64,000 nucleotides of DNA, taken from positions 77,206,202 to 77,270,201 of the forward strand of contig NC_057718.1 in NCBI RefSeq assembly GCF_004010195.1, written 5' to 3'. Under the pieces are notes generated by a model that was not told where the DNA came from, ran no database searches, and saw only the letters and a list, made by a program, of their open reading frames with translations. The translations under genes and the position numbers were made by a program. Below are positions 4,805 to 63,990 of this stretch, in pieces. Origin of the DNA: Chiloscyllium plagiosum (Eukaryota). Numbering within the stretch: position 1 is the first letter of the stretch; the number at the start of each line of letters is the position of its first letter.

Positions 4805-6982
4805 ATAAATTATTTTAATTTATTCTGATTTAGGTGCTGCTAAGTAATTTAACTGTTCCAAACCAAATGTAGGTGGACTTTCCAGGGTGCGCACCATCTG
4901 GATACTGCCCTATGAGCTCTCCTACTCACTTTACGTCTAGTGAAACTCTTTTGCTATCTTGATTCCACATATCAGAGGCAACCACAAAAGATTGTTGACC
5001 CAGCTCCTAAAGAAAATGTTTGAACTTGAATTCTTTTTTTCCTTTTTCTTTTTTCTGCGTTTTTAGCCCCCCTGCCCTAATATCATCTTCTGAAGCTTCA
5101 AGTCTGATTGACACTGCACCATTAAAGGCTCTCCATGCATGCTAGTTTCCTTTTATTAAATATCAAAGCTGATGTGTTTGATTAGGCAAGAGGGCTGGTG
5201 TGGAGTTGGTCTGAAATGGAATAATTATGTAAGTACTCATTCCAAAATCGATCAGATATGTGAACAGACTTTTCCTCATCTGTATGTCCTTGCCACAACA
5301 GAATGTCCTCCTCTGACTTCCAATGGCACAGGTTCTGACAAACAACAGTGAAATGACACTCATATTCTTATCTGTCATCCAGGGTTCCCTGATTGGACCA
5401 GATTAAGAGCCCCAAACAGGGCACTCATATTATGACCTCATTATAATCACTACAGTTAGTATTTATTTTCTCTGTTGCTGTCTCTAATATGTAAAAACAT
5501 AAACTTCCAATGTATTATCTATAATCCTCAGAAATTATGTTGGCAATTTGGTTAAAGAGAGGGTTACCTGCATCCAATGCATCAAGTCATACTTGTACAG
5601 GAAATAGATAATATTTTAGGCAAACACCTGTCATGGATTTCAGAAGTTATAATTTGGTAAAAGACAGTTAATTAACTTTGATTTCAACTGGGTTATAAGA
5701 CCTAATAAATGGAACAGAAAATGTGTGTCTCTAAAAAGTTGAAATGCATGCTGGAATTGGATAAACTTGAGATTTGGGACCAAACTGAATCTAATAAACC
5801 ATTAATCTTCTGATAAGCTTGAAGAGATTCATGGTCAGCTAGGGTTTCCACCCCGCACACACACATCCTTCGATATCAAGGTCACCATTGACAGCCTAAG
5901 AGATATTTGTTCTTCACATCCCCTCGTATTTGCATTGGGTGTTGAGAACATACATATATTTATGGATTATGAAGATTAGAAAATTGAAAATTTCAGCAAT
6001 TACTGGGATGCAAAGGATTTATCATGTGACTTATTAGAACTCAAAAGTCAAAAGGTCAAGGGAACTTGGGATCATTGTTTACAAAATGCCAGGTGACTTG
6101 AGGAAGGAAGCTTCTAAACAAGAGATGAAAGAATGCGTTATGGCATATAATTGCTGGTCAAATTAACTAGGCTTTAGAGGGGCCCCTATACAAGACTTTC
6201 TGAACTGTTATGTAGGATTCTGCACTTAACAAGCAGCAAAATTATTTTCCTAGCTATGTGCAACTTGCCAGGTCACTGAGATGAATATACATTGAAGAGT
6301 GCTTCTTCCTCCGCATTTCTGTTATATGGAGAACAATTTCAAATTCTCTAATCTTTCTACATATCTGAAGTTCCTCTATGCTTGATGCCATCTGTAATTA
6401 CATTGATACAATTTGCTCCTCCAAAATAGAGTATTTTGACTTGTTAAGAGTTTGGTATCATCTCCTTTTATTTGCAGTTGCCCTCAATTTAAAGATGTTT
6501 CATGTTACAACCCTCAACATCTTTTAAAATTGCATTTTTGCTGATAAGGTGGTATATATCACTATTCAGTGATGTTGATTGAGGAATACATATTGGCAAG
6601 GATACCTGTTTTTTTTAAATAGCAGCATGTATTATTTTATGTTCAGTTGAGAGATAGAATCTTGGTTTACTGGCTCATCTGAAATAAGGCATCTCCAATC
6701 ATTCTTGGTCCTTCAATTCTGCACTGTTACCTGCCTGGATTCTTTGTTCCTGTTGCTGTATCAGAATGAGGGTTTTACAGGACATAAAGCAGAGGAACAT
6801 GTGATCACAGGGTACTGAAGTACCAAAAATAGATCTCAGAACAAATAGCAAATATTTGAGCTGGCAAACCCAACAGTTCAAATAATTTAGGAGCATATTA
6901 CTGCAGATGCTGGAATGTGTAGTGAAAACCAAAAATACTGGAAATTGCAACAGGTCGGGCAGCATCCATGGAAAGAAAGCAA

Positions 6983-7500
6983 GTACAGAATCCAGCATCA
7001 AATGAATTATTGAATCCTGGTCATGCCTGTTATTTGCAAAACTATACAAAACTGCAGTTTCACCTCAACACAAGTTGAACTGAAAATGAAAATGTTGGAG
7101 ATCACAGCAGGTCAGGCAGCATCCATGGAGAAGGGCTTATGCCCGAAGCGTCGATTCTCCTGTTCCCTGGATGCTGCCTGACCTGCTGCGCTTTTCCAGC
7201 AACACATTTCCAGCTCTGATCTCCAGCATCTGCAGACCTCACTTTCTCCTCAAAGAAAGCAAGCTAACATTTCGAGTCTAGATTATTCTTTATCAGTGCT
7301 GACATGAAGCTGATGAAGAGTCATCTTGACTCGAAACGTTAGCTTGCTTTCTCTCCATGGATGCTGCCTGACTTGCTGTGATCTCCAGCATTTTCATTTT
7401 CAGTTCAACTTGTGTTGGGGTGAAACTGCAGTTTTGTATAGTTTTGCGAATAACAGGCATGACCAGGATTCAATAATTCATTTGATGCTGGATTCTGTAC
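6983..7500. repeat. Fold-back inverted repeat built from Penelope-type terminal repeats plus duplicated flank
   Basis: 6983-7131 is the near-perfect reverse complement of 7353-7500; inner arms 7253-7296 and 7310-7352 are also inverted; 7132-7251 is a fragment of a second Penelope-derived repeat. Confidence 0.9.
7310..7345 (+). ncRNA. Minimal hammerhead ribozyme motif (Penelope-associated)
   Basis: CTGATGA-A-GAGTCA-tct-TGACTC-GAAAC-GTT: conserved core, perfect 6-bp stem II and palindromic AACGTT stem III; the stem I 5' strand is truncated at the inversion junction. Confidence 0.7.
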
Positions 7501-9526
7501 TGAAAACCAACAAATGCTGGAGATCACAGCCGGTCAGGCAGCATTCATGGAGAGAGAGAGCAAGCTAATGTTCGAGTCTAGATGACACTTCTTCATAGCT
7601 GACATGAAGTGGGGAGGAACAGCATTTAAAAATTGTAGTTTGGAGGTTGGGAGAGTGGTGTTGATGGTGGGTTAATGGGTGGAGGGTACTGTTGGAGAAA
7701 ATATGTTACTAGTTTACATTAAGTGGCTGGATGTGAGAATGGCAGAACAATGGTGTGTCTCCTGCCAGACTGAAAGGGCAGTAAGGGGGATGGGGAGGGA
7801 ACGACTTGATAACAAGCTAAAAGAAAGGAAACAAATGGTTCACAATTTAATGTTGTTAATCTCAATACAGAAGAACCTTGACTCTTTGAAGTACACAGGC
7901 GGGCAGTATGTCATTCAGTTAATCGAGCTCCAGATAATTGAATGCTGGATAACATAGTTTAGCCAAACATTGGGACGTTGTGACCTTGCCAGATAATCTG
8001 ATATTCGGATAATCAAATGCCGGATATTCGAGGTTCTTCTGTATTAAGTTCAGAAGACTGAAAAGTGCCTCGTCAGAAGCTGAGATTTTGTCGTCCAGTT
8101 TGCGGTGTGTTTCACTAGGACATTGCAGTGTGCCGAAGACAGACATGTGGACATGCGAGTAGGAAGCTGTGTTAAAATGAACAGCTACGGGAAGGTCGGG
8201 ACCCTGCTAGTATGCAGACTGGAGATGTTCCACAAAGTAGTCACCCAGTCTGCATTTTGTTTCTGAAATGTAGAGTAGGCCACATTGGATGCAACAAATA
8301 CAGTACACAGGATTTGAGGAGGTACAAATAAAATGTTGCTTCACCTGGCAAGACTGTTTAGGTCCTCGGATGGTGAGCAGGGAGGAGGTGAAAGGGCAGG
8401 TGTTTCACCTTCTACCGTTAAGTGGGAAGGTGCCGTGGAGAGAGGGGGAAGTGTTGGTGGTTGTGAAATAGACTAGAATGATCCCTGCAAGATGCAGTCG
8501 GGGGAGTGAGGGGAAGGTGTGTTTGGTGGTGATGTTCTGCTGAAGTTGTCTGAAATGGCTGAGATGATCCATTGAATGCGGAGGCTGGTGGGTTGAAAAG
8601 TGAGGACAAGGGGAACCCGATCACGCTGTTGTGAGTGATGGGAAGAGACAAGGGTGGGAGCATGGGTGATAGGTCATATGCGATTGAGGACCCTGTCAAT
8701 CACAGTGGGTGGAAGAAGCAAGCCATATCAGCAGTACTGTTTTGGAAGGTGGCATCACTCAAACAGATGCGATATAGGTGAAGGAACTGGGTGAATGGGG
8801 TGGAGTTCTTGCAGGACGTGGGGTGTGACAAGATTTGGTGAAGTCAGCTATGGGAGTCCATGGCTTTATAGTGGATAGCGGTGGACAGTTTATTCCTCAA
8901 AGTGGAGGTAAAGTGGTCAAAGAAGGGAAGGGAACTGTTGGAAATGTACGATGTGCAAGTTATAGAGGGGGAGAAATTAGAGGCAAAATTAATGAAGTTT
9001 TCAAGGTCCTAGGGAGAGCATGAAACAGCATGGAAGCAGTCGCGATGTACAAAAAAAAAGTTGTGGGAGCAGGCCAGTGTGAGACTGGAACAAGGATTGT
9101 TCCACATACCCCATAAAGCGGCAGGCATTACTGGGACCCGTGCAGGTGCCTATAGTTACTTCTTTGACTTGGCAGAAGTGAGATGAATTAAAAGAGAAAT
9201 TATTCAGTAAGAGAACAGATTCACCCAGACGGGAGGAGAGTGGTGGTGGATGGGGATTGTTCAGGCCTTTGGTTGAGGAAGAAGCCGAGAGCTCTCAGAC
9301 CATCCTGGTGGGGAATGGAGGTATAGAGGGATTGGACATTCATGGTGAAAAGGAGGCAGTTAGGGCCAGGGAACTGGAAATTATCAATATAGGGGAGGGC
9401 ATCAGAGGAATCATGGATGTAGGTGGGCAGGGCCTGGACAAGTGGAAAGAGGATGGAGTCAAGGTAGGAGGAAATGAGTTCAGTGGGGCAGGAACAGGCT
9501 GATATGATGGGTCTACTGGGACAGTC
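7497..9526 (-). mobile_element. Penelope-like retroelement, degenerate (RT plus GIY-YIG region)
   Basis: - strand ORF 9221-9574 has RPIISACSCPTELISSYLD..LFTMNVQSLYTSIPH (PLE RT); 3' terminal repeat at 7497-7610; largely the reverse complement of 9740-11104. Confidence 0.85.
7868..8041. mobile_element. Tc1/mariner (Tigger-like) MITE inserted in the Penelope copy
   Basis: TIRs CAGAAGAACCT(T/C)GA; TA duplicated at 7866-7867 and 8042-8043; removing it restores CTCAATATTAAG, which matches the intact sister copy at ~10738-10750. Confidence 0.85.
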
Positions 9527-11104
9527 TTTCTCTGCTATTTCAGATAACTTCAGCAGAACGCAACCACCCAACATATCTTCCCGTCATTTGCCCCGTCGGC
9601 ATTTCACAGCGATCATTCCCTCCGAGACACCCTACTCTATTGCACAACCACCAACACCACCCCTCCTCCAAGGCCATGTAACCACAGAAGGTGCAACACT
9701 TGTCCCTTCACCTCCCCCTTCACTTGTTCAAGTCTTACATTGGCCCCCACCCACAAATTTTATTTTCAATACATTGACGACTGCTTCAGTGCCACTTCAT
9801 GCTCCCACCAGGACCTTGAAAACTTTGATAATTAGGCCTCCAATTTCCACCCCTCTTTAACTTACACATCATTCATTTTTGACACTTCCCTTCCTTTCCT
9901 TGATCTCTCTGTTTGCATTTCAGGGAATTATCTGTCTACTCCCATCCACTACAACTCCACGGACTCCCATAGCTACCTTCACTACAGCTCATCACACCCC
10001 ACATCCTGGAAGGACTCCATCCCATTCTCCCAGTTCCTTCACCAATGTCATATCAGTTTGGATGGTGCCAACTTCAAAAAAAGTGCTGCTGAAATGACAA
10101 ATCCTTCTTCCAACCAATGTGTTTAACAATGCCCTCAACCGCATCTGACTTATCTCCATGCTTTTACCTTTGCCCCTCCCCATCACCTTCAACTTTACGT
10201 CCAATCATTCTCCGCCATTTCAGACAACTCCAGTAGAATGCTACCACCAAAGACATCTTCCCCTCACTTTCCTGTCTGCATTTCATAGGGATCATTCCCT
10301 CCAGGACACCCTAGTCCTTTCCACAATCACCAATACTACCCATCAATTCCACGGCACCTTCCCATGTAACCACAGAAGGTGCAACATCTGGCCTTTCACC
10401 TCCTTCCTGCTCACCATCCAAGGGCCTAAACAGTCACGCCAGATGAAGCAGCATTTCACCTGCATCTCCTCCAAACCGCGTATTGTATTCACTGCATCCA
10501 ATGTGGCCTACCCTACACTGGAGAAATCAAATGCAGACTGGGTGACTGCTTTGCGGAACATCTCCAGCGTGTGCGCAAGCACAGCCCTGACTTTCCCACA
10601 GCTGGTCATTTTAACAGTTTCCTGCTCGCATGCCCACTTGTTTTGTCCTTGGCATGCTGCATTATTCCAGTGAAACACAGCACAAACTGAAGGAACAACA
10701 TCTCATCTTTAGACTAGTCTCTTTACAGCTTTCTGGACTTAATATTGAGTTTAATACCTTTAAACAGTGAACCATTTGTTTCCTTTCTTTTAGCTTGTTA
10801 TCATGTCATCCCCTTCCCCATCCCACTTTCTCCTTTCAAGTCTGACAGGAGACACACCATTGTTCTTCCATTCTCACATCCTGATCATTTAATGTAAGCT
10901 ACTAACATCTTTTCTCCAACAGCACCCTCCACCACCCACCCTCACCACCACCCCCCTCCCCAAACTATCACATAAATGCTGTCCCCTTCACATTTCATTT
11001 CAGCTCTGATGAAGCGTCATCTAGACTTGAAACATTAGCTTACTCTCTCTCTTTGAATGCTGCTTGACTCACTGTGATCTCCAGCATTTGTTGTTTTAAG
11101 TGCA
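9527..11104 (+). mobile_element. Penelope-like retroelement, degenerate, head-to-head with the 7497-9526 copy
   Basis: RT thumb and GIY-YIG remnants (TFPCNHRRCN, Y.GE..RL...F.EHL-like at ~10510-10565); 3' terminal repeat with hammerhead-like agctCTGATGAagcgtcatctagacttGAAACATTagct at 11002-11040; 9527-9735 duplicates a segment similar to 10205-10410. Confidence 0.85.
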
Positions 11105-17700: not shown

Positions 17701-18261
17701 AGGCCACGTACAAATAAGGAGTACCTGTAGCATGGTGGGGGCAGGGGATTGCAAAAGAAGATGTTTAGTTTTCTTTCTCACTGAATATCTTGGATCGAGA
17801 CTGACACCTATAACATGGGGCTCTCTGGCTGAGACTGACTAGGCAATATGCAAGCCTAGGGGCAGCTGTCCAGAACAGGGGTTTCACTTGTAAAACTAAA
17901 GGAAGACCCCCACAAACACCTCAGCTACTGACAATGAACACCAGTCTGCAGACCAAACAACCAAGACATTATGGAGCCTACAAAAATACAAAACTATTCA
18001 ACTTGTAATCAGTTTGCTCAGACACAGAGATATAGAATATTCCACACCATTGTACTACATGCAAACCTGTTTGCCTTTGAATGTGTGGCCTTCACATTAC
18101 AGTAAAACTTTAACCCACATCCATCCAAGAGAAATATTGGGCATTCAAAACTATCAGAAACCCATTCACTTTAATCGGAGAACCATTCACACCTCATCCA
18201 GTAATCAGGAGGCTCATTCAGCCCCAAGCGGAGGAACAACAGCTCAGTAATCAAATCCAGA

Positions 18262-18474
18262 CTGAGTTAAGAATCACACAACACCAGGTTATAGTCCAGC
18301 AGGTTTATTTGGAAGCATTAGCTTTTGAACCACTGCTTCTTCATCAGATTGACAAACACCTGATGAAGAAGCAGCGCTTCGAAAGCTAGTGCTTCCAACC
18401 AAACCTGCTGGACTATCATCTGGTGTTGTGTGATTCTTAGCTTAGTTCACCACAGTCCAACACCAGCTCCTCCA
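18262..18474. mobile_element. Fold-back Penelope-derived mini-element with 13-bp TSD
   Basis: Arms 18262-18347 and 18360-18446 are reverse complements; AATCAAATCCAGA is duplicated at 18249-18261 and 18475-18487. Confidence 0.85.
18357..18391 (+). ncRNA. Minimal type I hammerhead ribozyme, core intact
   Basis: cac-CTGATGA-A-GAAGC-agc-GCTTC-GAAA-GCTA-gtg: stem I CAC/GTG, stem II GAAGC/GCTTC, palindromic AGCT stem III (dimer-type), CUA cleavage triplet. Confidence 0.8.
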
Positions 18475-18778
18475 AATCAAATCCAGATTGAGAGGAGATA
18501 ACAGGGCACACAGTCTGTATAACTGCTATTGCTGCCCTTGGGGTGGGGGAGGGGAGGTGGGGGGGCGAAGAGAGAGGGGGCCTTTTTCCAACTTCAAGCT
18601 CCTGCAGAACAGTTTCCTCACAGGTTGTAGCCCTAACAAGCAGCTTTGGAACCAAGAACCACAGGGGCCAAACCAAGACATTGAATCAGGAAGACAAGCC
18701 AAAAGCATCATCACAACAAAGGTCATCAAAGAGGATATGAAGCCAACCAAGTATTATCTGAACAAGAGTTTCCAGATA

Positions 18779-18959
18779 CAGAATATGGTGCTGGAAAAGC
18801 ACAGCAGGTCGGGCAGCATCCAAGGAGCTGGAAAAATGACGTTTCAGGCAAAAGTCCCCGAAACGTCAATTTTCATGCTGCATGAATGCTGCCTGACCTT
18901 CTGAGTTTCCAGCAGGTGGTTGACTCAAGTCTCCAGCATCTGCAGTACTCACTTTTACC
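18779..18959. mobile_element. Second fold-back Penelope-derived mini-element with 9-bp TSD
   Basis: Inverted arms (GCTGGAAA..CAGGTCGGGCAGCAT..GACGTTTC / GAAACGTC..ATGCTGCCTGACC..TTTCCAGC); TTCCAGATA at 18770-18778 and 18960-18968; 3' CTCCAGCATCTGCAG tail as in the 47558 element. Confidence 0.75.
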
Positions 18960-20650: not shown

Positions 20651-21004
20651 ATTCTGTGTGCAATTTCTTGAAATGAAGAGGATAAAACCTATACTAGGCA
20701 TGTGCTCATCGCCACAAGTGCAATGGTTTACTGATAAGGCTGCCTGCACACAATAAATTGTAGATTCTTTGGACAACAACCAAACTACCAGAGTCTTCCC
20801 ATTTTTGGGAAATAAAGCTTTTCTAACATGCATTTCTTTGTTGACATGATATAGTGAAGCCAATAAAATTAAATGAATTTGCCCAAAAAGACTGAGTTGA
20901 ATGTTTGGAAGATTGGAAAAAGGTTTAGCCTGGGACACGACCAGCTTCTTAAACAGTTATATTACAGCTGGAGTATATGAATTTGTCACTTTGTTTATTG
21001 CTAG

Positions 21005-21167
21005 AAAAAGGATGGATCAGTTTGAACATGAGAAGATTGAAGAAATAGCTCGGTTAGATGAGTACAAGAAGGAGGAAATGAAGAAACTACAAAAAGCAAA
21101 GCAATTGTCTGCAAAACACTCAGCAACAAGAGCTATTTTTGATAAGAAAGAGAATGAAGAGATGGAG
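21005..21167 (+). CDS. CENPJ: CENPJ/CPAP (SAS-4)-like protein, internal coiled-coil exon (phase 2 to 0)
   Basis: ttgctag|A...GAG|gtaggt; encodes KRMDQFEHEKIEEIARLDEYKKEEMKKLQKAKQLSAKHSATRAIFDKKENEEME, resembling the CENPJ segment [31 protein letters not shown]. May be a paralog rather than the ortholog. Confidence 0.85.
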
Positions 21168-21777
21168 GTAGGTCAGGATCCTGGCAAAATACAAATAATT
21201 CTTCAGTCAATGCTAATGAAAATGAAAAAGGCTGGTTAGCTGAGTTGGCTAGGCGACTAGTATATGGATCAGATAACAGAATTGATCCTGATTTCAGCAG
21301 ATAGACTGCTTCTTCAGTCAGGCCATTGTATAAAACATGACAATTCTGCCATGATTCAGCAAATAATCACCAAGATCTTGCCTTTGAACAGAAGAAGAAG
21401 AAAAAGAAAAAGATATCAGAAACAAAAATTTGTGAAGTGTTGCAAAAAGGACATTGCCAAATTGGCATCTTGGTTCATACCCACATTTTTTTTGCTTCCA
21501 GTATTGAAAAATTAGACATCAGTTACTTATTGCCCAAGACTAATTTTTACTGTTCCCTTTCACTTACCTAGATAATCATTAATCATATGGAACCAAACAT
21601 ATCTAATTTTCATAATTAGAGACATATTGGGAACCAGGTCTTTCATATATATCTGGAATACACTTATTGATGAAAAACACTGACTATGGTAAACATTGTA
21701 ATGGATTGGTTGATGAAGTTGTTGAAATCTTGCAGCAAAAAAACAAATTGCGACTGATGTTTATGTCAGTTTACTCA

Positions 21778-25835: not shown

Positions 25836-28800
25836 TTAAATAAAAGTCCTTGTTAGGATGGCCAAAATATCTGTATTTATATAATTCAAGAAGGGCTGCC
25901 ATATTTTATGGAATAATGTAGTCTTTTGGTGCACGATATTTGTTAGGAAGTCAAGTGGAATACATTCCATAATTAATCTGTGCCAGTTTGAAAGTCCAGG
26001 GGGGCCCTCAGCCACCCAGTTTACCAAAATATTTTTCCTTGCACAGAAAGAGAGAATAGAAAATAATTTCTTCCCGTGCATATCCAGGGAGGGTAAGTTC
26101 GAAAAGCCCAATAGGAAAGTTACAGGGTCCACTCTAATTTCCGTTCCTAAAATTTCTGTCAGGGCACTTGCTACTTTAGTCCAATATCTACTGATCTTGT
26201 GACAGGTCCATAGGCAATGTACAAGAGTGCCCACCTCTATTTTACATTTGGGACACATTGGAGATGCTCCTGCCTTAAATTTTGCTAATCAATCCGGTGC
26301 TATATGGGCCCTATGAAGTATCTTCAGCTGAATAGCCTGAGTTCTGTTGCAGATGGTGATTCTTCTGGCGTTTTCCCAAATGTCATTCCACGTTTCTAAA
26401 GAGATTTCTAGTCCCAAATCCTGATCCCATGTTTTAAGCAGATTGTCCATATCTCCCAATACTTCATCATGTAGTAAATGATAAATAGTACTGACGGAAG
26501 ATACCCCCATTGGCCATAGCATTCTACATTCTCTATCTGATTTATAAAGACTATCTAATAACGCCCTCTTCTGTATGTAATCTCGAATTTGGAAGTATCG
26601 AAAGAGGTCTCCATTAGGTAATCCGAATTTCTGACACAGCTGTTCAAAAGACATCAGGACCCCTTCTTTAAATAGATCCCCTAAACAGGAGATACCCCTG
26701 GATCTCGAGTTTGAAAATGGTATCTGTAAACCCCGGTTGAAATCCCCATGCTCCCACTATCGGAGCATAGGGGGATGTTTTATGTGAGTTGCCCTCATTT
26801 TGTGGCATTATATTCCAAGCTTTAATTGTGTTTAGTATTATAGGGTTTTTACAGTGATCCGTAATGATTTTCCTCTTGTCTGAAAATAAAAGGTTAATAA
26901 GTGGGTATTTTACTTGAGAAGCCTCGATGTCCAACCAGATTGATTGCGGGCCTGACAAGACCTAATCAGCTATGTAACTGAATAGGGAACTTAACTGATA
27001 TTTCCTGAAATCTGGGAAATCCAATCCTCCCCTTGCCTGTGGTAGCTGTAGCTTCTTCAGCTTAATGAGGGGCTGTCTATGATTCCAGATAAAGGAACCC
27101 AGCCAGCCATATAATTTACGTAGTGCCAGCCTCGGCAGCATCAGCGGAAGCATTCTCATAGGGTATAGGAGACAGGACAGGACATTCATTTTAATTAGTG
27201 CTATTCTGCCTAACCAGGAAATTGGAAGGTCTCCCCATCGCTGGAGGTCCTTCCTTATCCTTTCCAGTAAATGCACAAAGTTAGCCTTGTATAACTGACC
27301 AAATACTGGGGTAATAAAAATGCTTAAATATAAAAAACCCTCCAGGGATCACCGAAAGGGAAAGTGGGATCCGTCCAATAAATGGGATATACTTGTGAGG
27401 CCACCCATTGGCATGGCCTCCGATTTTGAGAGATTAATTTTGTAACCTGAAAATACACTAAATGTATTAATAACTTGGATTAAGTGAGGCACGGACATCA
27501 AAGGATTACTGAGAAATAGAAGATCATCTGCATATGGGTTAATTTTATGTTTACCTATACCAATCCTCGGGGCTGTTATATTAGGGTCAGCCGGTATAGC
27601 TTCTGCTATATTATTAGCGTAAATAGCAATGGCGAGAGAGGACATCCCTGATGGCAGCCCCTATCCGCACTGAAGCTATCCGAGCCTAATCCATTGGTAA
27701 TCACAACTGCTTTGCGATCACTATACAGTGTTGAGACCCATTTGATAAACACCTTTCCAACGCCAACCCTTTCCAATGTGTAAAACAAATATGACCATTC
27801 AACCCTGTTGAATGCCTTTTCCGCGTCTAATGAGACTATAACTCCTGGTATCTTTCCCTGATGGCAGGCTTGGATCACATTCAAAACCTTCTAACATTAT
27901 TGGATGATCTACGGCCCTTAATAAACCCCGTCTGATCCTCCTTTATGATATGTGGCAATACCCTTTCTAGCCTCAATGCTAACGTTTTAGAGAGGATTTT
28001 AAAATCTACACTTAGCAAGGATATTGGTCTGTATGACGCGCAATCTTCTGGGTCCTTTCCTTTTTTAAGGATAAGAGAGATATTTGCCTCTTTCAGTGAA
28101 GGCAGGAGACAGCCCTGACTGTATGATTAGTTATACATGTCCATAAGTGGACCAGCCAATATTCCTGTAAATTCTTTATAGACTTCAGCTTGAAAGCCAT
28201 CTGGGCCAGGTGCCTTACCGCTCTGAAGTTGCCTGATTGCGTCAAGTACTTCTTGGATGGTTAGGGGACATTCAAGACCGATACCTGTTCTGGAGTTAGG
28301 TCCGGAAAGGTCAAGTTTTAAAAAAATGATTGCATCCTCCTAGTCCTGTCTTCACAATCCTGCGATTTATATAAATCAGAATAAAATTTTCTAAAGATTG
28401 CGTTAATCCTTTTATGATCATGAGTCAAAATACCCGTACTTTCCTTGATAGACGTGATAGTTTGAGGGGCCTTCTTTTTCTTTGCAAGAAATGCTTAGTA
28501 TCTACCAAATTCATATAACCTTTGTTTTGCAAATAATATTTCCCTCTTAGCCGTTTGGGTAAGAATGGTGGTTAGAGCTGTCCTAAGGGCCTTAATCCTT
28601 TGCAATTTGATAATAGAAGGTCTGTCAGCATATGCTGTTTCAGCCGCTTTTAAGCGAGCTTCAAGCAGATGCTGTTGTTCTCCCTTTAATTTTTTCTGGG
28701 TCGCTGAGTATGAGATGATCAAACCTCGCGCGTAAGCTTTGATGGTCTCCCACATCATTGATGGGTTGCTAGCCGTACCTAAATTAATTTATAGAAAAGT

Positions 28801-29615
28801 TTTAAATTCTTGAGAGAAGTACTTTACAAATTTACTACCTTTCATTCAGGAAGGTGTCCATATGCCAATGCTGGGGGGGAATATCTCATTGTTCCTCGCC
28901 TTGATTTCCATATATACAGCAGCATGATCGGAAATTGCTATACTGCCTATTTTACAGATTGATATGGAATTTAAAAAAAATCAAGGGGGCAAAAAACATA
29001 TCGATTCTGGTATGGGATTTATGTGGATTGGAGTAAAAAGAAAAATCTCTGCCCTGTGGATGGAGGCATCTCCATATATCTACTAGTCCTAATTCTTTGT
29101 TCAAATCCACCAATTGTCTAGATCTGGGCGATACTCCCGCAGTACTCTTGGGAATCCTGTCTATTTCCGGATCCATAATACAACTAAAGTCTCCCGTATA
29201 ATTGTATGACGAGCACGAGAGCCATCAATTTTGAGAAGGCTTCCATTATAAATTTAAAAGGATGTGCCGGGGGACAATACAAATTTAAAATCCCATATTT
29301 CTTTCCATTTATAAGGGCTTTAATCAGAATATATCGTCCAGATTCGTCTTTTATCTGATTTAGGATTTTGAAAGGAAAATTCTTCCGAATAAGAACAACA
29401 ACTCCCCTGCTTTTTGAGCTAAAAGAAGAAATAAAAGCCTGATCAAATCCACCCTGTCGTAATTTCAAGTGTTCTTTATCCAATAAGTGTGTTTCCTGTA
29501 GGAGAGCTATATCAACCCTTTTTTTCTTGAGGTTTGATAACATTTTCTTCCTTTTGACTGGTGAGTTACTCCCCTTGACATTCCAGGTGCACCACTTAAC
29601 CGACTGATCAACCAT
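25836..29615 (-). pseudogene. L1 ORF2 (APE endonuclease, RT, CCHC finger), frameshifted
   Basis: MVDQSVKWCTWNVKG..LLQETH, SLDAEKAF, GCHQGCPLSPLLF, YADD, CPKC..HCLWTC, split over several ORFs. Confidence 0.92.
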
Positions 29616-30339
29616 GATCGTCCGGGCAAATCCGAGACCCCTTGGGAGGGGAAACCCTATCCAGAACATCCCGAGCATAGAGCATATAAAATTCACAAAA
29701 ATAAAAGCTCTCTAATACACTCACAACAGTATAGTAAAAAACTATTTCTAAATTTCAAAAAATGTATTTAAATGGAGATTTTATCCCTTGTTCCCAGGGG
29801 GTGTCACTTCCTTTCCAAAAGTCCATCGTATCCTCTCCCAACCAGTGCCCCACCCTTGACCCAGGCGCTCCTCAATAGGATGAAGAAAATTCAAATATAC
29901 TACAGAGCTAGAGTTAACAGTGAGCACCCTACCCCCACCCCCCACCCACACCAACACCTGGATATATTTGGTAATGTTAATACCATGTATAAACATATAT
30001 AACTATAAAATTACAACCTCAACAAGTAATAATTAAATATAATAATACAAAATAACAAGGGAAAACCACCCCGCTCCTAGAGCCGGAGGTAAAATAGAAT
30101 AAGGTAACCACCTCCCCCTACCAACATTAACTAGACCCCCGGCCTATATATAGAATAAAAAAACAGGGGGAGGGAGAAAATCGTTAAGTAGAGAACAAAT
30201 AAATAAATCCCTCTCCCCACCCCCCAAGATAATATTAAACAGTAAGGTAAAAAAACAGGATTAATATATAAAAAAAAGGGAGGCGGGGTGTAAACCAGAG
30301 TGGGGGGAAAGCAAATCAACATCAATTATCTCTTACAAT

Positions 30340-31173
30340 TTATCTAAGAGAGTCCAAAAATTCCTTGACCTTTTCCGGCGATCCGAAGTTATACACGGAC
30401 CCTTCATGTTTAAAGCGTAGCGTTGCTGGGTAGTGCAAGGAGTACTGAATATTTAAGTCCCTTAAACACTTCTTCGCCTCATCAAACGCCTTCCTCTTTC
30501 GGACCAGAGCTGGGGAAAAGTCCTGGAATAACACGATCTTGGATCCTTTTACGATCATGGCCTGGGGATCTTTTCCAAGATTTCCGGAGGCTTCTAAGAG
30601 TATCTGCCTCTCCTTGTAACTCTGCAGCCGGAACAGGACCGGGCGGGGTCACGTATTGCAACCTGGTAGGCCCATTCCACCTTTACCTGGCCTGATCCAG
30701 CCTCCAGATTTAAAAGCTGTGGAAGCCACTGTTCAAGGAACACTAAGCTGGCCTTCCTCTTTCCGTTCGGGAAGGCCCAGCAAACGAATGTTTTTGACGA
30801 CCTCAATTCTCGAGGTCGTCTGTGTGATTCTCTAAGGTCCAGACTCGCTGTTGGAGAGTCCGGACCCAATCCACGGCCGATTGTGCTGTAGTTTCGGAGG
30901 TCACAGCCTTTAGCTCCGCCTCTCCGACTCGCCGCTCAATTTCCTTGATGTCTCGGCCGTGCTTTTGCAGTGCGGCCAAGAGTGAGTCCCATCGGCTTCG
31001 GAATTCTTCAATAAAAGTGTCGATCTTCACTTCGACTTTGGAGATTATTTCCACGAGGCTCGTCACCGTAAGTAAGCTCCCGGGGCGGCTGCGGACGCCT
31101 CTGCTGCAGCTGGAGAGGGTGGGGGAGGGGTTCATGCCTGCTGAGAGCTGCGGGCTACCTTCCCTTTAGTCAT
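30340..31173 (-). pseudogene. L1 ORF1p (coiled coil, RRM, CTD), disrupted
   Basis: ATG at 31173 followed by an early stop; coiled coil (IKEIERRVGEAE..DDLEN) and C-terminal LFQDFSPALVRKRKAF..YPATL. Confidence 0.88.
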
Positions 31174-34352: not shown

Positions 34353-37300
34353 TGAATAGGCAGAGTGCACACTGAGCAGGAGCGGACACGGGACTGCTAA
34401 GTAAAGTAACATATTTGAGTCATTGCATTACCTGAAACACTACTTAGGTAGTGTCTCCCACCCATCCTCCTCCTTCAACCAAAACAAAAGGTTCTGTCCG
34501 CCGGATTGGTAAGGTAACTAGTTATTTTTTATTCTTTAGTTTTCTTCAGTCTCTTTGGGAACTTAGACCACTGAGGATGGTGGTTAGGGCAGTTGAAAGT
34601 TCCTCCTTAGGAATGTGGTGGGGTAAGGGTCACCACTAGTGTCCCTGCTGACTGCATCTGTGGGAAGTGCACCCAACTCCAGCTCCTCGAAAACCACATT
34701 AGGGAACTGCAGCTGAAGCTGGAGCTGGATGAACTTCGGATCATTCGGGAGGTGGAGGGGTTATTGAATGGAGTTACAGGAAGGTAGTCACACCTTAGGT
34801 ACAAGAAAAAGGCAGATGGGTTACTGTCAGGGGATGGAACAGGAACCGGTAGGTAGTGCAGGGAACCCCTGTGGCTGTTCCCCTCAATCCTGGATCCTGT
34901 TGGGGGGCGATTTACCTGCGGTAAGCCATGGGCTACAGGTCTCTGGTAGAAAGTCTGTCCCTGTTGTTCAGAAAGGAAGTGGGAAGATGAGCAGAACATT
35001 ACTCATTGGGGACTCCATAGTTAGGGGGACAGATAGGAAATTCTCTGGGAATGAGAGAGACTTGCGGTTGATGTATTGCCTCCAAGGTGCCAGGGGTCTT
35101 GAAGTCTCGGATCATGTTTTCGGAATCCATGAGGTGAAGGGGGAGCAGCCCCAAGTTGTGGTCCACATAGATACTAATGACATAGGAAAAGGGATGGATT
35201 CGTACATGGAACTGTGATGTTGTTGCCATTACGGAGTCTTGGATATCACAGGGGCAGAAATGATTCTTGGATGTTCCAGGGTTTAGATGGTTCAAAAGGA
35301 TTAGGTTGGGAGGTAAAAGAGGTGGGGGAATGGCATTGCTAATCAGAGATAGTATCACAGCTGCAGAAAGGGAGATTGTCGAGGAGGATTTGTCTACAGA
35401 GGCAGTATGGGTGGAAGTCAGAAACAGGTAAGGAGCAGTCATTTTATTGGACATTTTTGACAGATCCTCCAATAGCAACAGAGACATGGAGAAGCAGATT
35501 AGGAGTCAAATTTTGGAAAGGTGCAGAATTAACAGGGTTGTTATCATGGTTGACTTTAATTACCCTAATATTGATTGGAACCTCCTTAGTTCAAATAGTT
35601 TGGATGGGTCAATTTTTGTCAGCTGTGTCCAGGAAGCGTTCCTGACTCACTATGTAGATAGGCTGATTAGAGGGGAGGCCATATTGGATTTAGTGCTTGG
35701 CAACGAACCATACCAGGTGTCCAATCTCTCGGTGGGAGAGCATTTTGGTGATAATGATCAAACTCACTGACCTTCTATGTACTCATGGAGAAGGATAGGA
35801 GCAGATGGTATGAGAAAGTATTTAATTGGGGGAGGCAGAATTACAATGCTATTAGGCAGGAACTAGGGTGCCTAATTTGGGAACAGATGTTCTCAAGGAA
35901 ATGCACGACAGAAATGTGGAGGTTTTTTATGGAGCTCTTCCTGATAGTGCTGGACAGGTTTGTCCTACTGAGGCAAGGGAGGGATGGGAGATTGAAAGAA
36001 CCATGGGTGACAAGGGATTTGGAAAATCTCTCTAGTCAAGAGGAAGAAGGATGCTTATTAAGGTTGAGGAGGCAAGGATCTGACAGGGCTCTAGAGGGTT
36101 ACAAGGTACCCAGGAAGGAATTGAAGAATGGACTTACGGGATTTAGAAGGGGGCATGACAAAGCTTTAGCGGGTAGGACTAAGGAAAACCCTAAGGCATT
36201 GTACACTTATGTGAGGAATAAAAGCTGGCCAAAGTGAGGGTAAGGCCGATCAGTGATAGTGGAGAGAGCTCGTGCCTGGAGTCAGAGGAGGTAGGAGAGG
36301 TCCTTAATGAATATTTTGTTTCAGTATTTACTATTGAGAGGCTCTTGTCGTTTGTGAGGACAGTGTGAAACAGACTGATATGTAACAGATTGATGTTAAT
36401 AAAGAGGATGTGCTGACAATGTTGAAAAACATAAGGAAAGATAAGTGCCCTGGGCCAGCCGGTATATACCCAGGTTACTACAGGAAGCAAGAGAAGAGAT
36501 TGCTGCACCTTTGGTGATGATCTTTGTGTCCTCACTGTCCACTGGAGTAGTTCCAGATGATTGAAGGGTGACAAATACTATTCCCTTTTTCAAGAAGGGG
36601 AAGAGGGATAATCCTGGGAGCTACAGACCATCAATGTTACATCTGTGGTGTGCAAATTGTTGGAGAGGATTTTGAGAGACAGGATTTATGATTATTTTGA
36701 AAACCATAGTTTGATTTGAGATAGCCAGTATGGTTTTGTGAGGGACAGGTCATGCCTCACAAACCTTATTGAATTCTTTGAGGATGTGACAAAACACGTT
36801 GATGAAGGTAGAGCAGTCGATGTGGCATACATGGATTTTAGCAAGGCATTTGATAAGGTTCCCCATTGTAGGATCATTCAGAAAGTAAGGAGGCATGGGA
36901 TACAGGGAAATGTGTTTGTCTGGATACAGAATTGGCTGGCCCATAGAAGACTGAGGGTGGTTGTAGATGGAAGATAGATTGAGCTTGATGACGAGTGGTG
37001 TTCCACAGGGATCGGTTCTGGGACCTCTCGTCTTTGTGATTTTTATAAATGACTTGGATGAGGAAGTGGAAGGGTGGGTTAGTAAGTTTACCAATGACAC
37101 ATAGGTTGGTAAAGTGGTGGATAGTGGAGGGCTATTGTAGATTGCAATGGTACATTGACAGGATGAAGAACTGGGCTGAGAAGTGGGAGATGAGTTCAAC
37201 CTGGAAAAGTGCGAAGTGATTCATTTTGGAAGATTGAATTTGAATGCAGAATGCAGGGTTAAAGGCAGGATTTTTGGCAGTATGGAGGAACAGAGGAATC

Positions 37301-37985
37301 TTGGGGTCTATGTCCATAGATCCCTTAAAATTGCCATCCAAGTTGATAGAGTTATTAAGAAGGTGTATAATGTGTTCATGATTTGGAGATATAGTGTGTT
37401 GGCTTTCATTAGCAGGGGGCTTGAGTTTAAGAGTCATGAGGTCATGCTGCAGCTCTATAGAACCCTGGTTCGACCACACTTGGAATATTGTGTTCAGTTC
37501 TGGTTGCCTCATTATAGTAAGTATGTGGAAGCTTTAGAGAGGGTGTAGAGGAGATTTGCTAGTATGCTGCCTGGACTGGAGGGCATGTCTTATGATGTAA
37601 GCTTGAGGGAGCTCGGGCTTTTCTCATTGGAACGAAGAAGAATGAGAGATGACTTGATAGAGGTGTACAAATTGTTAAGAGGCATAGTTAAAGTGAATAG
37701 CCAGAAACTTTTTCCCAGGGTGGAAATGGCTATCACGAGGGGGCATAATTTTAAGGTGATTGGAGGAAGGTTTAGGGGAGATGTCAAAGGTAGCGTCTTT
37801 ACACAGTGCGTGGAACACACTGCCAACGATGGTCGTAGAGTCAGATACATTAGGGACATTTAAGAGACTCATGGATAGGCACATGGAAGATGTGTATGTA
37901 GGTTAGTTTGATCTTAGAATATGATAAAAGTTCGGCACAACATCAAGGGCCGAAGGGCCTGTACTGAGCTGTACTGTTCTATATT
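34119..37985 (+). mobile_element. Near full-length CR1 LINE with internal deletion
   Basis: 5' tandem repeats; ORF1 zinc finger/leucine zipper (DCICGKCTQLQLLENHIRELQLKL) and SGNH esterase (LLIGDSIVRG, VVVHIDTNDI) joined at ~35200 to the endonuclease (DVVAITESW); RT ([31 protein letters not shown]); tail CTGTACTG..TTCTAT. Confidence 0.92.
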
Positions 37986-47557: not shown

Positions 47558-47741
47558 GGCATCCAAGGAACAGGAGAATCGATGTTTCGGGCATAAGCCC
47601 TTCTTCAGCCCTTCCTGAAAAAGGGCTTATGCCCGAAACGTCGATTCTCCTGTTCCTTGGATGCTGCCTGACCTGCTGCGCTTTTCCAGCAACACATTTT
47701 CAGCTCTTATCTCCAGCATCTGCAGCCCTCACTTTCTCCAC
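47558..47741. mobile_element. Fold-back Penelope-derived mini-element with two opposed hammerhead motifs
   Basis: Arms 47558-47608 and 47615-47664 are inverted; cores CTGAA(G/A)AAGGGCTTATGCCCGAAAC(G/A)TC on both strands; CCTGTATTGGA duplicated at 47547-47557 and 47742-47752. Confidence 0.82.
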
Positions 47742-61318: not shown

Positions 61319-63990
61319 TGTTATGACACAGCAGCAAACCCTTCTGCTAATTAAACCAAACACATAGAAATTGTAATTGTTTTTTTATAGATATTTTTAT
61401 TAGAAATTTAACATTTTTACAAGTTTACAAAAATAAATAAAACTCTCAAGTACAAACATTGATATACAATTAAATATTAAATATATAATAACCAAAATTT
61501 AACAAAAGAAAAATACCGAGAAAGAAAAAAAACAAAACTCAACTAACTACTAATCTAACCTACAACTAACAAGAGTGTATATTTAAGTCTCTTACATTAT
61601 TCAAATAAGAGAAAGAGAAAAAAAAAACAAAAAAAAACAACGGATAACATAGAAATTGGGTAGTGAGATACATGCTTGGAATGTGTTAACATCAAATGTA
61701 ACAAAACCCGTATTTGTGCAGGATTCCTCTCCCAAGGGGCCCCGGACCAGCCAGGTTCGTAATCTCAATTAAATAAAAGCCCTTGTTAGGATAGCCTAAA
61801 TATCTGTATTCATATAATTCAAGAAGGGCTGCCATATTTTGTAAAATAATTCGTCTTTCGGTGCACCATATTTGTAAGGAAGTCAAGGGGAATACATTCC
61901 ATAATTAATCTGTGCCAATTTGAAAGTCCAGGGGGACCCTCAGCCACCCAGTTTACCAAAATATTTTTCCTTGCACAGAAAGAGAGAATAGAAAATAGTC
62001 TCTTCCCGTGCATATCCAGGGAGGGAAAGTTCGAAAAGCCCAAAAGGAGAGATATAGGGTCCACTTTAATTTCCGTTCCTAAAATTTCTGTCAGGGTACT
62101 TGCTACTTTAGTCCAGTATCTACGGATCTTATGACAGGTCCATAGGCAATGTTCAAGAGTGCCCACCTCTATTTTACATTTGGGACAGATTGGAGATACT
62201 CCTGCCTTAAATTTTGCCAATTGATCCGGTGCTATATGGGCCCTATGAAATATCTTCAGCTGGATAGCCTGAGTTCTGTTACAGATGGTAATTTTCTGGC
62301 GTTTTCCCAAATGTCATTCCACGTTTCTATAGAGATTTCTAGTCCCAAATCCTGATCCCATGTTTTAAGCAGATTGTCCATATCTCCCGATACTTCATCA
62401 TGTTAGTAAATGATAAATAGTACTGATGGAGGATACTCCCATTGGTCGTAGTACTCTACATTCTCTATCTGATTTATAAAGACTGTCTAATAACGTAGTC
62501 TTCTTCTGTATATAATCTCGAATTGGAAGTATCGATAGAGGTCTCCATTAGGTAATCCGAATTTCTGATGCAGCTGTTCAAAAGACATCAGGACCCCATC
62601 TTTAAATAGGTCCCCTAGACATGAGATACCCCTGGATCTCCAGAGTTTAAAAGTGGCGTCTGTAAACCCCGGTTGGAATCCCCATGCTCCCACTATCGGC
62701 GCATAGGGGGATGTTTTATGTGAGTTGCCCTCATTTTGCTGCATTATATTCCAAGCTTTAATTGTGTTTAGTATTATAGGGTTTTTACAGTGATCCGTAA
62801 TGATTTTCCTCTTGTCCAAAAATAAAAGGTTAACAAGTGGGCATTTTACTTGAGAAGCCTCGATGTCCAGCCAGATTGATTGTGTATCAGACAAGACCCA
62901 ATCAGCTATTTAATAGGGAACTTAACTGATATTTCCTAAAATCTGGGAAGTCCAATCCTCCCCTTGCCTGTGGCAGCTGTAGCTTCTTCAGCTTAATGAG
63001 GGGCCATCCATGATTCCAGATAAAGGAACCCAGCCAGCCATATAATTTATGTAGTGCCAGCCTCAGCAGCATCACTGGAAGCATTCTCATAGGGTATAGG
63101 AGACGGGGCAGGACATTCATTTTAATTAGTGCTATTCTACCCAGCCAGGAAATTGGAAGGTCTCCCCATCGCTGGAGGTCCTGCCTTATCCTCTCCAGTA
63201 AATGCACAAAGTTAGCCTTGTATAACTGACCAAATACTGGGGTAATAAAAATGCCTAAATATAAGAAACCCTCCAGGGACCAATGAAAGGGAAAATGGGA
63301 TCTGTCCACTAAGTGGGGTATCATAGCAAGGCCACCCATTGGCATAGCCTCCGATTTTACCTCGTAATTGTTTGAAGTATGAGTGATAGAAAACTACCCA
63401 AATTCTACTATTTAACAAAAAATATCAATATATTCCTTAACTCTAAAAGTGAACATTAAACAACAATTATTTACAACTCTATGCCTCCTTTTTCTTCAAG
63501 GTTTGTTATCTACATCCTACTCTATAACAATATCCTGATCCAATAAAAGCCCCTATTAAATTTACAGAAACCTAATGTTCAAAACTAGACAGCAGCTGTC
63601 ATCTCCAGTGTCAGTCTTCCTCTGTAGATCTTCCTGGATCGTCTTTGGTCTTCTGCTGCAAAGATGTTTCATATGGAAAAGGTACCTTTGACAGAGAGTG
63701 TGGTGAATAGCAGTCTTTCAATGGCAGTTGGTGCTCTTCATTAATTTGATGTTGTCAAAACAGTAAAATTCAAATTTGATTGGGTTTTAGTTTCTTGGGG
63801 CATAATTTAAACTGATTGGTTAAATTCAAACTGCTGTGAAAATAACTTGAGGTATCTAGGTTACAGCCAAGTGTTACATCTTTCAATTTTCCAGCACACT
63901 GTGTGACTGCTAGTCGGTCACATGACAGGTGCTTGCCAGCTTTCAACTTTCACTCTCTCTTAAAGGTACAGTGCACACCTTCAACTACAT
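61319..63990 (-). mobile_element. Solo LTR (61319-61382 plus 63364-~63990) split by an L1 insertion
   Basis: - strand end TGTGTCATAACA at 61319 and start region GTGCACTGTACCTTTAAGAGAG; homologous to 21778-22485. Confidence 0.75.
61383..63363 (-). mobile_element. 5'-truncated L1 (~2 kb), same family as 25475-31346
   Basis: Highly similar to 25475-27430; TSD GTAATTGTTT at 61373-61382 and 63364-63373. Confidence 0.93.

Follow-up and report, generated by a model that had tools for sequence, protein, structure and literature searches.

Organization of the fold-back unit

The window analyzed here, a 64-kb stretch of Chiloscyllium plagiosum DNA, harbors at 18249-18492 a noncoding fold-back unit in which two mirrored arms are enclosed by a direct repeat. 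The inverted arms (18261-18347 and 18360-18446) are 87 nt long each and 89% complementary, differing at 10 of the 87 positions, and they are separated by a gap of 12 nt. The predicted fold of the unit has an energy of -138 kcal/mol, as compared with -48.9 ± 4.2 kcal/mol for shuffled sequences (n = 200; z = -21), and none of the 200 shuffles equaled it. About 40 nt at the right end of the unit do not pair with the hairpin and lie outside the fold.

The direct repeat (18249-18266 versus 18475-18492) spans 18 nt with a single mismatch (94%), and an equal match was found in 13 of 20,000 random site pairs. The first 5 nt of the right copy are also the 3' end of the repeat family itself, and the last 2 nt of the left copy also fit the start of the left arm. 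Because the repeat copies overlap the element ends in this way, the target duplication is best read as 16-18 nt with microhomology at its ends, rather than as a fixed length. A preliminary description of this DNA had proposed a unit made almost entirely of hairpin and flanked by a 13-bp duplication. The former holds except for the unpaired right end, and the latter is indeed a target duplication, but its length has to be revised to 16-18 nt, with one mismatch and overlap with the element ends.

The repeat family in sequencing runs

The family was followed in four of 24 public runs by a single read and contig mapping over 18070-18669 at 80% likeness. In the DNA runs X3 and X8, 32,930 and 36,497 contigs matched, respectively, and the summed arm depth in X3 was 10^5-10^6, as compared with about 3-8 for single contigs, a depth that is not equivalent to copy number. 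These data show that the family is a very large and very abundant shark repeat. Within the 64-kb window, a BLAST search with the unit returned only the unit itself and its own mirror, with no second copy. We found no account of this shark family or of a propagating hairpin of Penelope-like elements (PLEs) in the literature, a weak absence given that most subscription journals, Repbase/Dfam and supplements were outside the search.

The points at which other copies continue or end allowed us to delimit the arms. Continuation 5' of 18265 with tail sequence was found in 984 and 961 contigs (the 24 rows listed, with 1,108 more existing), continuation 5' of 18272 with a few element bases followed by mixed AT-rich flank in 410 (X3) and 463 (X8) contigs among those listed, and continuation 5' of 18352 with upstream element sequence in 240 and 266 contigs and 249 reads among those listed; five of the six right-arm pieces listed for X13 ended at 18477-18481. 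It follows that the sense arm comprises 18352-18479 on the plus strand, starting 8 nt 5' of the hammerhead core and ending with the tail, and that the inverted arm, an antisense family end without tail, runs on the minus strand over 18265-18347, its proper start lying near 18265 (the mirror of 18442) and not at 18261. The tail, 37 nt at 18443-18479, is present at the right end only, and other copies carry it at the mirror position as well. Both outer ends and the 5' start of the sense arm are therefore common with ends listed for other copies. Between the arms, four bases (18348-18351) do not correspond to the upstream sequence of the family contigs.

Four variants with respect to the family majority are common to both arms, and two of them are rare (18271/18436 and 18299/18408; 2-6% of the X3 depth), which suggests that both arms derive from one template lineage. 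These arm-common variants fit equally a hairpin master, one molecule copied twice or conversion between arms. Each arm also carries several private changes. In addition, a joint from 18479 to 18265 was present in 4 (X3) and 6 (X8) contigs, suggesting that the family also occurs elsewhere tail to tail or in repeated arrangement.

The center of the hairpin in other copies

The depth at 18348/18351 was 1.7-3.0% of that at 18356, or 4.6-7.3% when indels were counted, a fraction that is rough because assembly graphs treat hairpins badly. At 18348, other letters accounted for 274 of the 481 depth in X3. The depth crossing the center in X3 (387-481) was far above that of a single contig (about 6), indicating that more than one locus has a center of similar size. 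Among 15 of 195 joints that were listed, six skip the center, connecting left-arm ends at 18289, 18289, 18299, 18305, 18312 and 18312 with right-arm positions 18357-18370; each was represented by one contig per run, and the short sides of the joints measured 22-30 nt. Another 12 of 142 joints added left-arm ends at 18298 and 18303, with different letters in between. Thus, the inverted arm appears to vary in extent among copies while the sense start stays near the hammerhead, and a constant inversion center with constant ends was not found among the joints listed, the center depth being 2-7%. The proposal that the hairpin is a propagating unit is not borne out by these data, since other fold-backs turn at different points and with other center letters, and the hairpin is probably not what moves. 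The random inversion points that the preliminary description named as evidence against such a unit are largely what the left-arm ends display, although they are not fully random, as the right arm starts near the front edge of the hammerhead.

The center together with its neighbors (18345-18352) coincides with 8 nt of the right target copy (18484-18491). This match was noticed post hoc, and an equal one occurred in 889 of 50,000 random 78-nt stretches (p about 0.018), so that an origin of the center bases from the target is suggestive only.

The hammerhead motif and its predicted folding

The right arm contains, at 18357-18391 on the plus strand, a candidate minimal type I hammerhead with the anatomy given in PMC4209133 and a predicted cut after 18388. 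In it, CUGAUGA is followed by a single additional A, stem II (5 bp, capped by a loop of 3 nt), GAAA, the palindromic AGCU and the CUA triplet, and stem I has 3 contiguous bp. No core mismatch was found: the extra base before 10.1, the G10.1-C11.1 pair, the palindromic 15.2-16.2 positions and the NUH triplet are all present. A strict motif pattern, designed post hoc, matched one site in the 64-kb window and none in 300 simulated 64-kb sequences. Matches to the motif pattern in other collections (none in viral contigs, 0 and 2 in prokaryote genomes, 1 in metagenomes) were discarded, the three loci being attributed to chance with similarity over 20-24 nt only. On the minus strand of the left arm, GAAA is changed to AAAA and stem II carries two changes. 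The complete motif in the right arm and the decayed antisense copy in the left arm are thus as first described.

A hammerhead covariance scan, proposed earlier as a check, matched no Rfam hammerhead family: there was no hammerhead among the six matches of the unit at E ≤ 1, which were weak microRNA and tmRNA matches far under the gathering scores, and the 72-nt motif had no match at E ≤ 10. This result carries little weight, because minimal variants were originally detected with custom descriptors (PMC4209133).

The predicted pairing probability of stem II was 0.87 in a 39-nt piece and 0.11-0.28 when downstream sequence was included, owing to competing pairing. For a dimer, the double-hammerhead fold had a predicted energy of -13.7 kcal/mol versus -26.9 kcal/mol for the best fold, a gap of about 13 kcal/mol. 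In plus-strand transcripts the antisense arm comes before the ribozyme, and the core was predicted to pair with the left arm with a probability of 0.92-1.0 at all seven transcript lengths folded. On the minus strand, the sole sense copy of the hammerhead is the decayed one. These models agree with the earlier suggestion that the antisense arm could block the ribozyme, which would be locked in a duplex in any plus-strand transcript; this locking is a by-product of the fold-back geometry and not a designed switch. The stem II partners 18369 and 18379 both deviate from the family majority while their pair is preserved, a sign that the motif was under selection in the source subfamily. The hammerheads of PLEs are reported to be weakly active even as dimers (PMC4209133), and protein-assisted cleavage was dispensable for insertion in vitro (PMC11167929).

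RNA reads and the poly(A) site

The RNA sample, about 2% of a poly(A) single-cell run, yielded 2,265 family reads. None of them was at least 99% like the locus, which indicates that they come from other copies of the family. In at least 980 of the 2,265 reads, among the rows listed, poly(A) or poly(T) was found at one family position, after 18415/18416 or at its mirror. Positions 18398-18403 read AATAAA or ATTAAA in most of the family and are followed by a GU-rich stretch, the whole region spanning 18398-18416 on the plus strand. The available portion of PMC2377424 mentions neither AATAAA nor a poly(A) site. At the poly(A) site, an A-run is absent from the window and from the DNA rows listed, so that internal priming is an unlikely source of the poly(A) reads, as judged from sequence. 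In the unit itself, the hexamer of the sense arm is changed at two bases and that of the antisense arm (18309-18304, minus strand) is retained. This loss cannot be called significant (P 0.04 if the two changes are taken as independent, 0.25 if as one event), and a selected loss of the poly(A) signal is statistically unsupported.

The distance from the predicted cut to the poly(A) site is 27-28 nt, and a further 26-64 nt separate the site from the two genomic 3' ends. Because the site precedes the genomic ends, the polyadenylated RNAs would not be the templates of the tail-bearing copies, and the abundant polyadenylated RNA would be unable to supply tail-bearing insertions, which matches the priming inside a longer RNA reported in PMC11167929. 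There was no pile-up of read starts or ends at the predicted cut in this poly(A) single-cell library, which is blind to circles and to 28-nt products.

Insertion site and host gene

The insertion is carried by a separate host repeat of moderate copy number (18100-18529), as indicated by a similar depth on both sides and by the ends of flank pieces. Sixteen of the flank pieces listed end at 18251-18263 without entering the element, as expected of empty paralogous sites, and the empty-site joint from 18261 to 18488 was absent among the 15 of 195 joints listed. A 99-nt contig under another organism code (X13, record 2) reads through the left junction, differing at 8 of 97 positions, which weakly hints that the insertion is old. 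The host repeat had no protein match. A search of the flanks against PLE proteins gave no match either (best E 0.21), so that a PLE coding end at the left flank is unsupported.

Downstream of the unit, the exon at 21003-21167 is 100% identical to a CENPJ-like protein of Chiloscyllium plagiosum, and six plus-strand exons of its gene map across 21003-54342, with introns of up to about 19.5 kb. The earlier part of this protein did not map anywhere in the 64-kb window. With no upstream exon in the window, the unit probably lies within a long intron of the CENPJ-like gene, with its sense arm on the gene strand. At 21317, on the minus strand and 150 nt past this first exon, there is a hammerhead-like core with a 5-bp stem II, from a family otherwise unseen in the window, which failed a stricter hammerhead census.

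Other elements in the window

Two further hammerhead families are represented by fold-backs at 7254-7352 and 47559-47664, with different centers. The second of these fold-backs, when followed over 47559-47730, has 50-nt arms, a 6-nt center that repeats bases of its own arm, a long right tail and a flanking direct repeat. The window also contains a coding PLE relic (7496-11104) arranged head to head, with homology to reverse transcriptase (RT) and GIY-YIG and with arms 73-83% alike; its minus-strand copy runs from RT to GIY-YIG over 9559-8087, its plus-strand copy covers 9743-10618, and a hammerhead-like core lies at 11006. This relic belongs to a family different from that of the 18249-18492 unit. 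The fold-backs and the relic together suggest that the head-to-head arrangement is general for PLEs in this window, at any length. A GIY-YIG-like piece (10430-10687) could be placed only via full-length PLE proteins, and no homolog was found when it was searched alone. Pfam searches of the window frames (six and two frames) gave nothing significant, and an Atlas search returned unnamed clusters and a DUF.

A young-looking inverted repeat of 150 nt (97%) at 6982-7501 surrounds the short fold-back at 7254-7352; its arms extend about 110 nt past the end of the hammerhead family, a copy of another hammerhead family lies in its left arm, and it may be a captured flank or a DNA-level inversion. A fourth fold-back (18782-18955), 300 bp downstream of the unit, belongs to the 47559 family; its center falls in the stem II loop, and the CUGAUGA part is missing. 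The frames at 25836-31165 and 61819-63393 are presumably decayed L1-type elements, and we take the RT pieces at 5-1137 and 35432-37548 to be CR1/L2-like.

Origin of the unit

The arrangement of the unit points to an insertion by an EN+ PLE, as the preliminary description had proposed: an inverted and 5'-truncated copy lies at the 5' end of the direct copy, a 37-nt tail within the 30-40-nt range is found at one end only, a target duplication surrounds the whole unit, and a hammerhead motif lies in the end repeat. We regard the unit as a single, old and dead one-off insertion made by an endonuclease-bearing PLE enzyme, with its mirror arm made at the landing site, to which we assign a probability of about 0.8; the little depth through the center and the differing turn points of the other fold-backs make this the best reading. 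What was inserted would be the last ~128 nt of the element in sense orientation, including the hammerhead, the poly(A) signal and the tail, with an inverted, tail-less copy of 83 nt placed head to head in front of it, all inside the 16-18-nt target duplication. During insertion, the PLE enzyme would nick both target strands. Priming would take place at the tail end for the right arm, involving 5 nt of microhomology, and at the tail-less start site for the left arm; a single template lineage would serve for both arms, whose ends would be joined at the center. For the mirror arm, either the second nick or self-priming may have supplied the primer.

Self-priming, in which the first DNA copy or an antisense template folds back and primes itself, with a single round of copying from one RNA and with the first arm as the DNA template of the second, concerns only the origin of the second arm and overlaps the explanation just given. 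It is the proposal made for rotifer Penelope palindromes in PMC3846280, and the two rare variants present in both arms fit one molecule copied twice. However, the left outer end is the tail-less end found in the 410 (X3) and 463 (X8) contigs mentioned above (an agreement of only about 0.4), such a shared tail-less end is what a second true priming site would produce, and the four center bases are not element sequence, so that we consider self-priming possible but doubtful. The rare variants would also suit a small nonautonomous subfamily in which the hairpin is transcribed whole and moved in trans by the PLE enzyme, a reading that can further appeal to the flanking duplication, which marks a complete insertion, and to the center depth, which implies more than one locus with a center of similar size. 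Nevertheless, the center depth is only 2-7% of the front-edge depth and includes other letters and indels, the joints listed differ among themselves, the center resembles its own target site, and an 87-bp duplex would be a poor template for reverse transcription, all of which renders this subfamily improbable.

A class II MITE-like element, with long terminal inverted repeats and a hammerhead look-alike, would share the long inverted arms and the flanking duplication of the unit. Its ends, though, should be symmetric, whereas here the 37-nt tail is on the right only; most of the family depth does not pass through a center; and the same core occurs with different stem II sequences in three families within the window. 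Furthermore, the common cut-and-paste superfamilies make duplications shorter than 16-18 nt, and the MITE reading is largely refuted, its probability being close to nil. A copy retained for a host function in the CENPJ-like intron, either as double-stranded RNA for editing or small RNAs or through a selected loss of the poly(A) signal, would be in agreement with the location of the unit on the strand of the gene, 5' of the first exon detected in the window, with the hexamer being absent from the sense arm and present in the antisense arm, and with the possible age suggested by the junction-crossing contig. Against it, both arms carry several private changes, the hexamer loss is not significant, and none of the RNA reads was like the locus at the 99% level, which makes a host function very improbable.

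Beyond this locus, we make a tentative proposal for the family, that the PLE end module is a hammerhead plus a poly(A) switch, in which transcripts that terminate at the poly(A) site would be dead ends for want of the priming sites, and only read-through RNA would be copied. Equally tentative, when taken jointly with the switch, are the suppositions that the usual template is a short RNA starting ~8 nt before the hammerhead core and that the fold-backs record both nicks priming the same RNA at two start sites, the center being sealed by target-borrowing end joining. If this proposal were true, thousands of stubs would make the second-strand step of PLE integration readable from the genome. How PLE integration is completed and what role the PLE hammerheads play are open questions (PMC11167929, PMC8557442), and a genome of short fold-backs with measurable ends, centers and target overlaps could separate double priming from self-priming. 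Family copies in sense orientation could also truncate host transcripts. The single locus matters little, as it is one dead copy among very many, and its value lies in the family.

Comparison with known systems

Animal non-LTR retrozymes (Cervera and De la Pena 2020, PMC7229834; Li et al. 2026, 10.64898/2026.07.22.740005) are, like the shark unit, noncoding, PLE-related and provided with a type I hammerhead, and they also have larger target duplications and are present in a cartilaginous fish. However, a retrozyme is built as a head-to-tail tandem, has two or more intact ribozymes and gives rise to circular RNA (PMC7229834; 10.64898/2026.07.22.740005), whereas the shark unit has a head-to-head layout and a single intact motif, and the RNA observed for its family is polyadenylated. 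A non-LTR retrozyme was ruled out, the second motif being inverted and decayed and no tandem being present in the window, and the earlier label of retrozyme-like does not apply, as the defining tandem of intact ribozymes is absent.

With the minimal hammerheads of metazoan PLEs (Cervera and De la Pena 2014, PMC4209133), the motif shares the intact core, the extra base between 9 and 10.1, the G10.1-C11.1 pair, the palindromic 15.2-16.2 positions and the lack of helix III. It differs from those of the Schistosoma families in having a stem I of 3 pairs instead of 4-5 and a stem II of 5 pairs instead of 7-8. Most motifs in that study are single and come from truncated PLEs, and the dual motifs lie on opposite strands 100-700 bp apart, whereas only about 12 nt separate the two shark motifs; the portion of the study consulted mentions no shark family by name.

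The arrangement of inverted copy, direct copy, tail and duplication is itself already published for EN+ PLE units (Arkhipova et al. 2013, PMC3846280; Craig et al. 2021, PMC8557442), which likewise have, next to a direct pLTR, a head-to-head inverted copy shorter than the direct one, a tail of 30-40 bp that is often at one end only, a duplication around the whole and a hammerhead in the end repeat. In contrast with them, the shark unit has no reading frame between its arms, is only ~215 bp long and has its inversion center at the front edge of the hammerhead, and its duplication is 16-18 nt instead of the 8-10 bp of the rotifer examples. A further related system is the Anolis Poseidon element PAc (Frangieh et al. 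2024, PMC11167929), in which the tail has been tied to two RT start sites with cleavage and extension of both strands. Priming by PAc proceeds without target homology, unlike the 5-nt overlap of the shark copy, but both have two 3' end positions split by the tail, an AC-rich end able to form a stem-loop, and ATT on one target strand.
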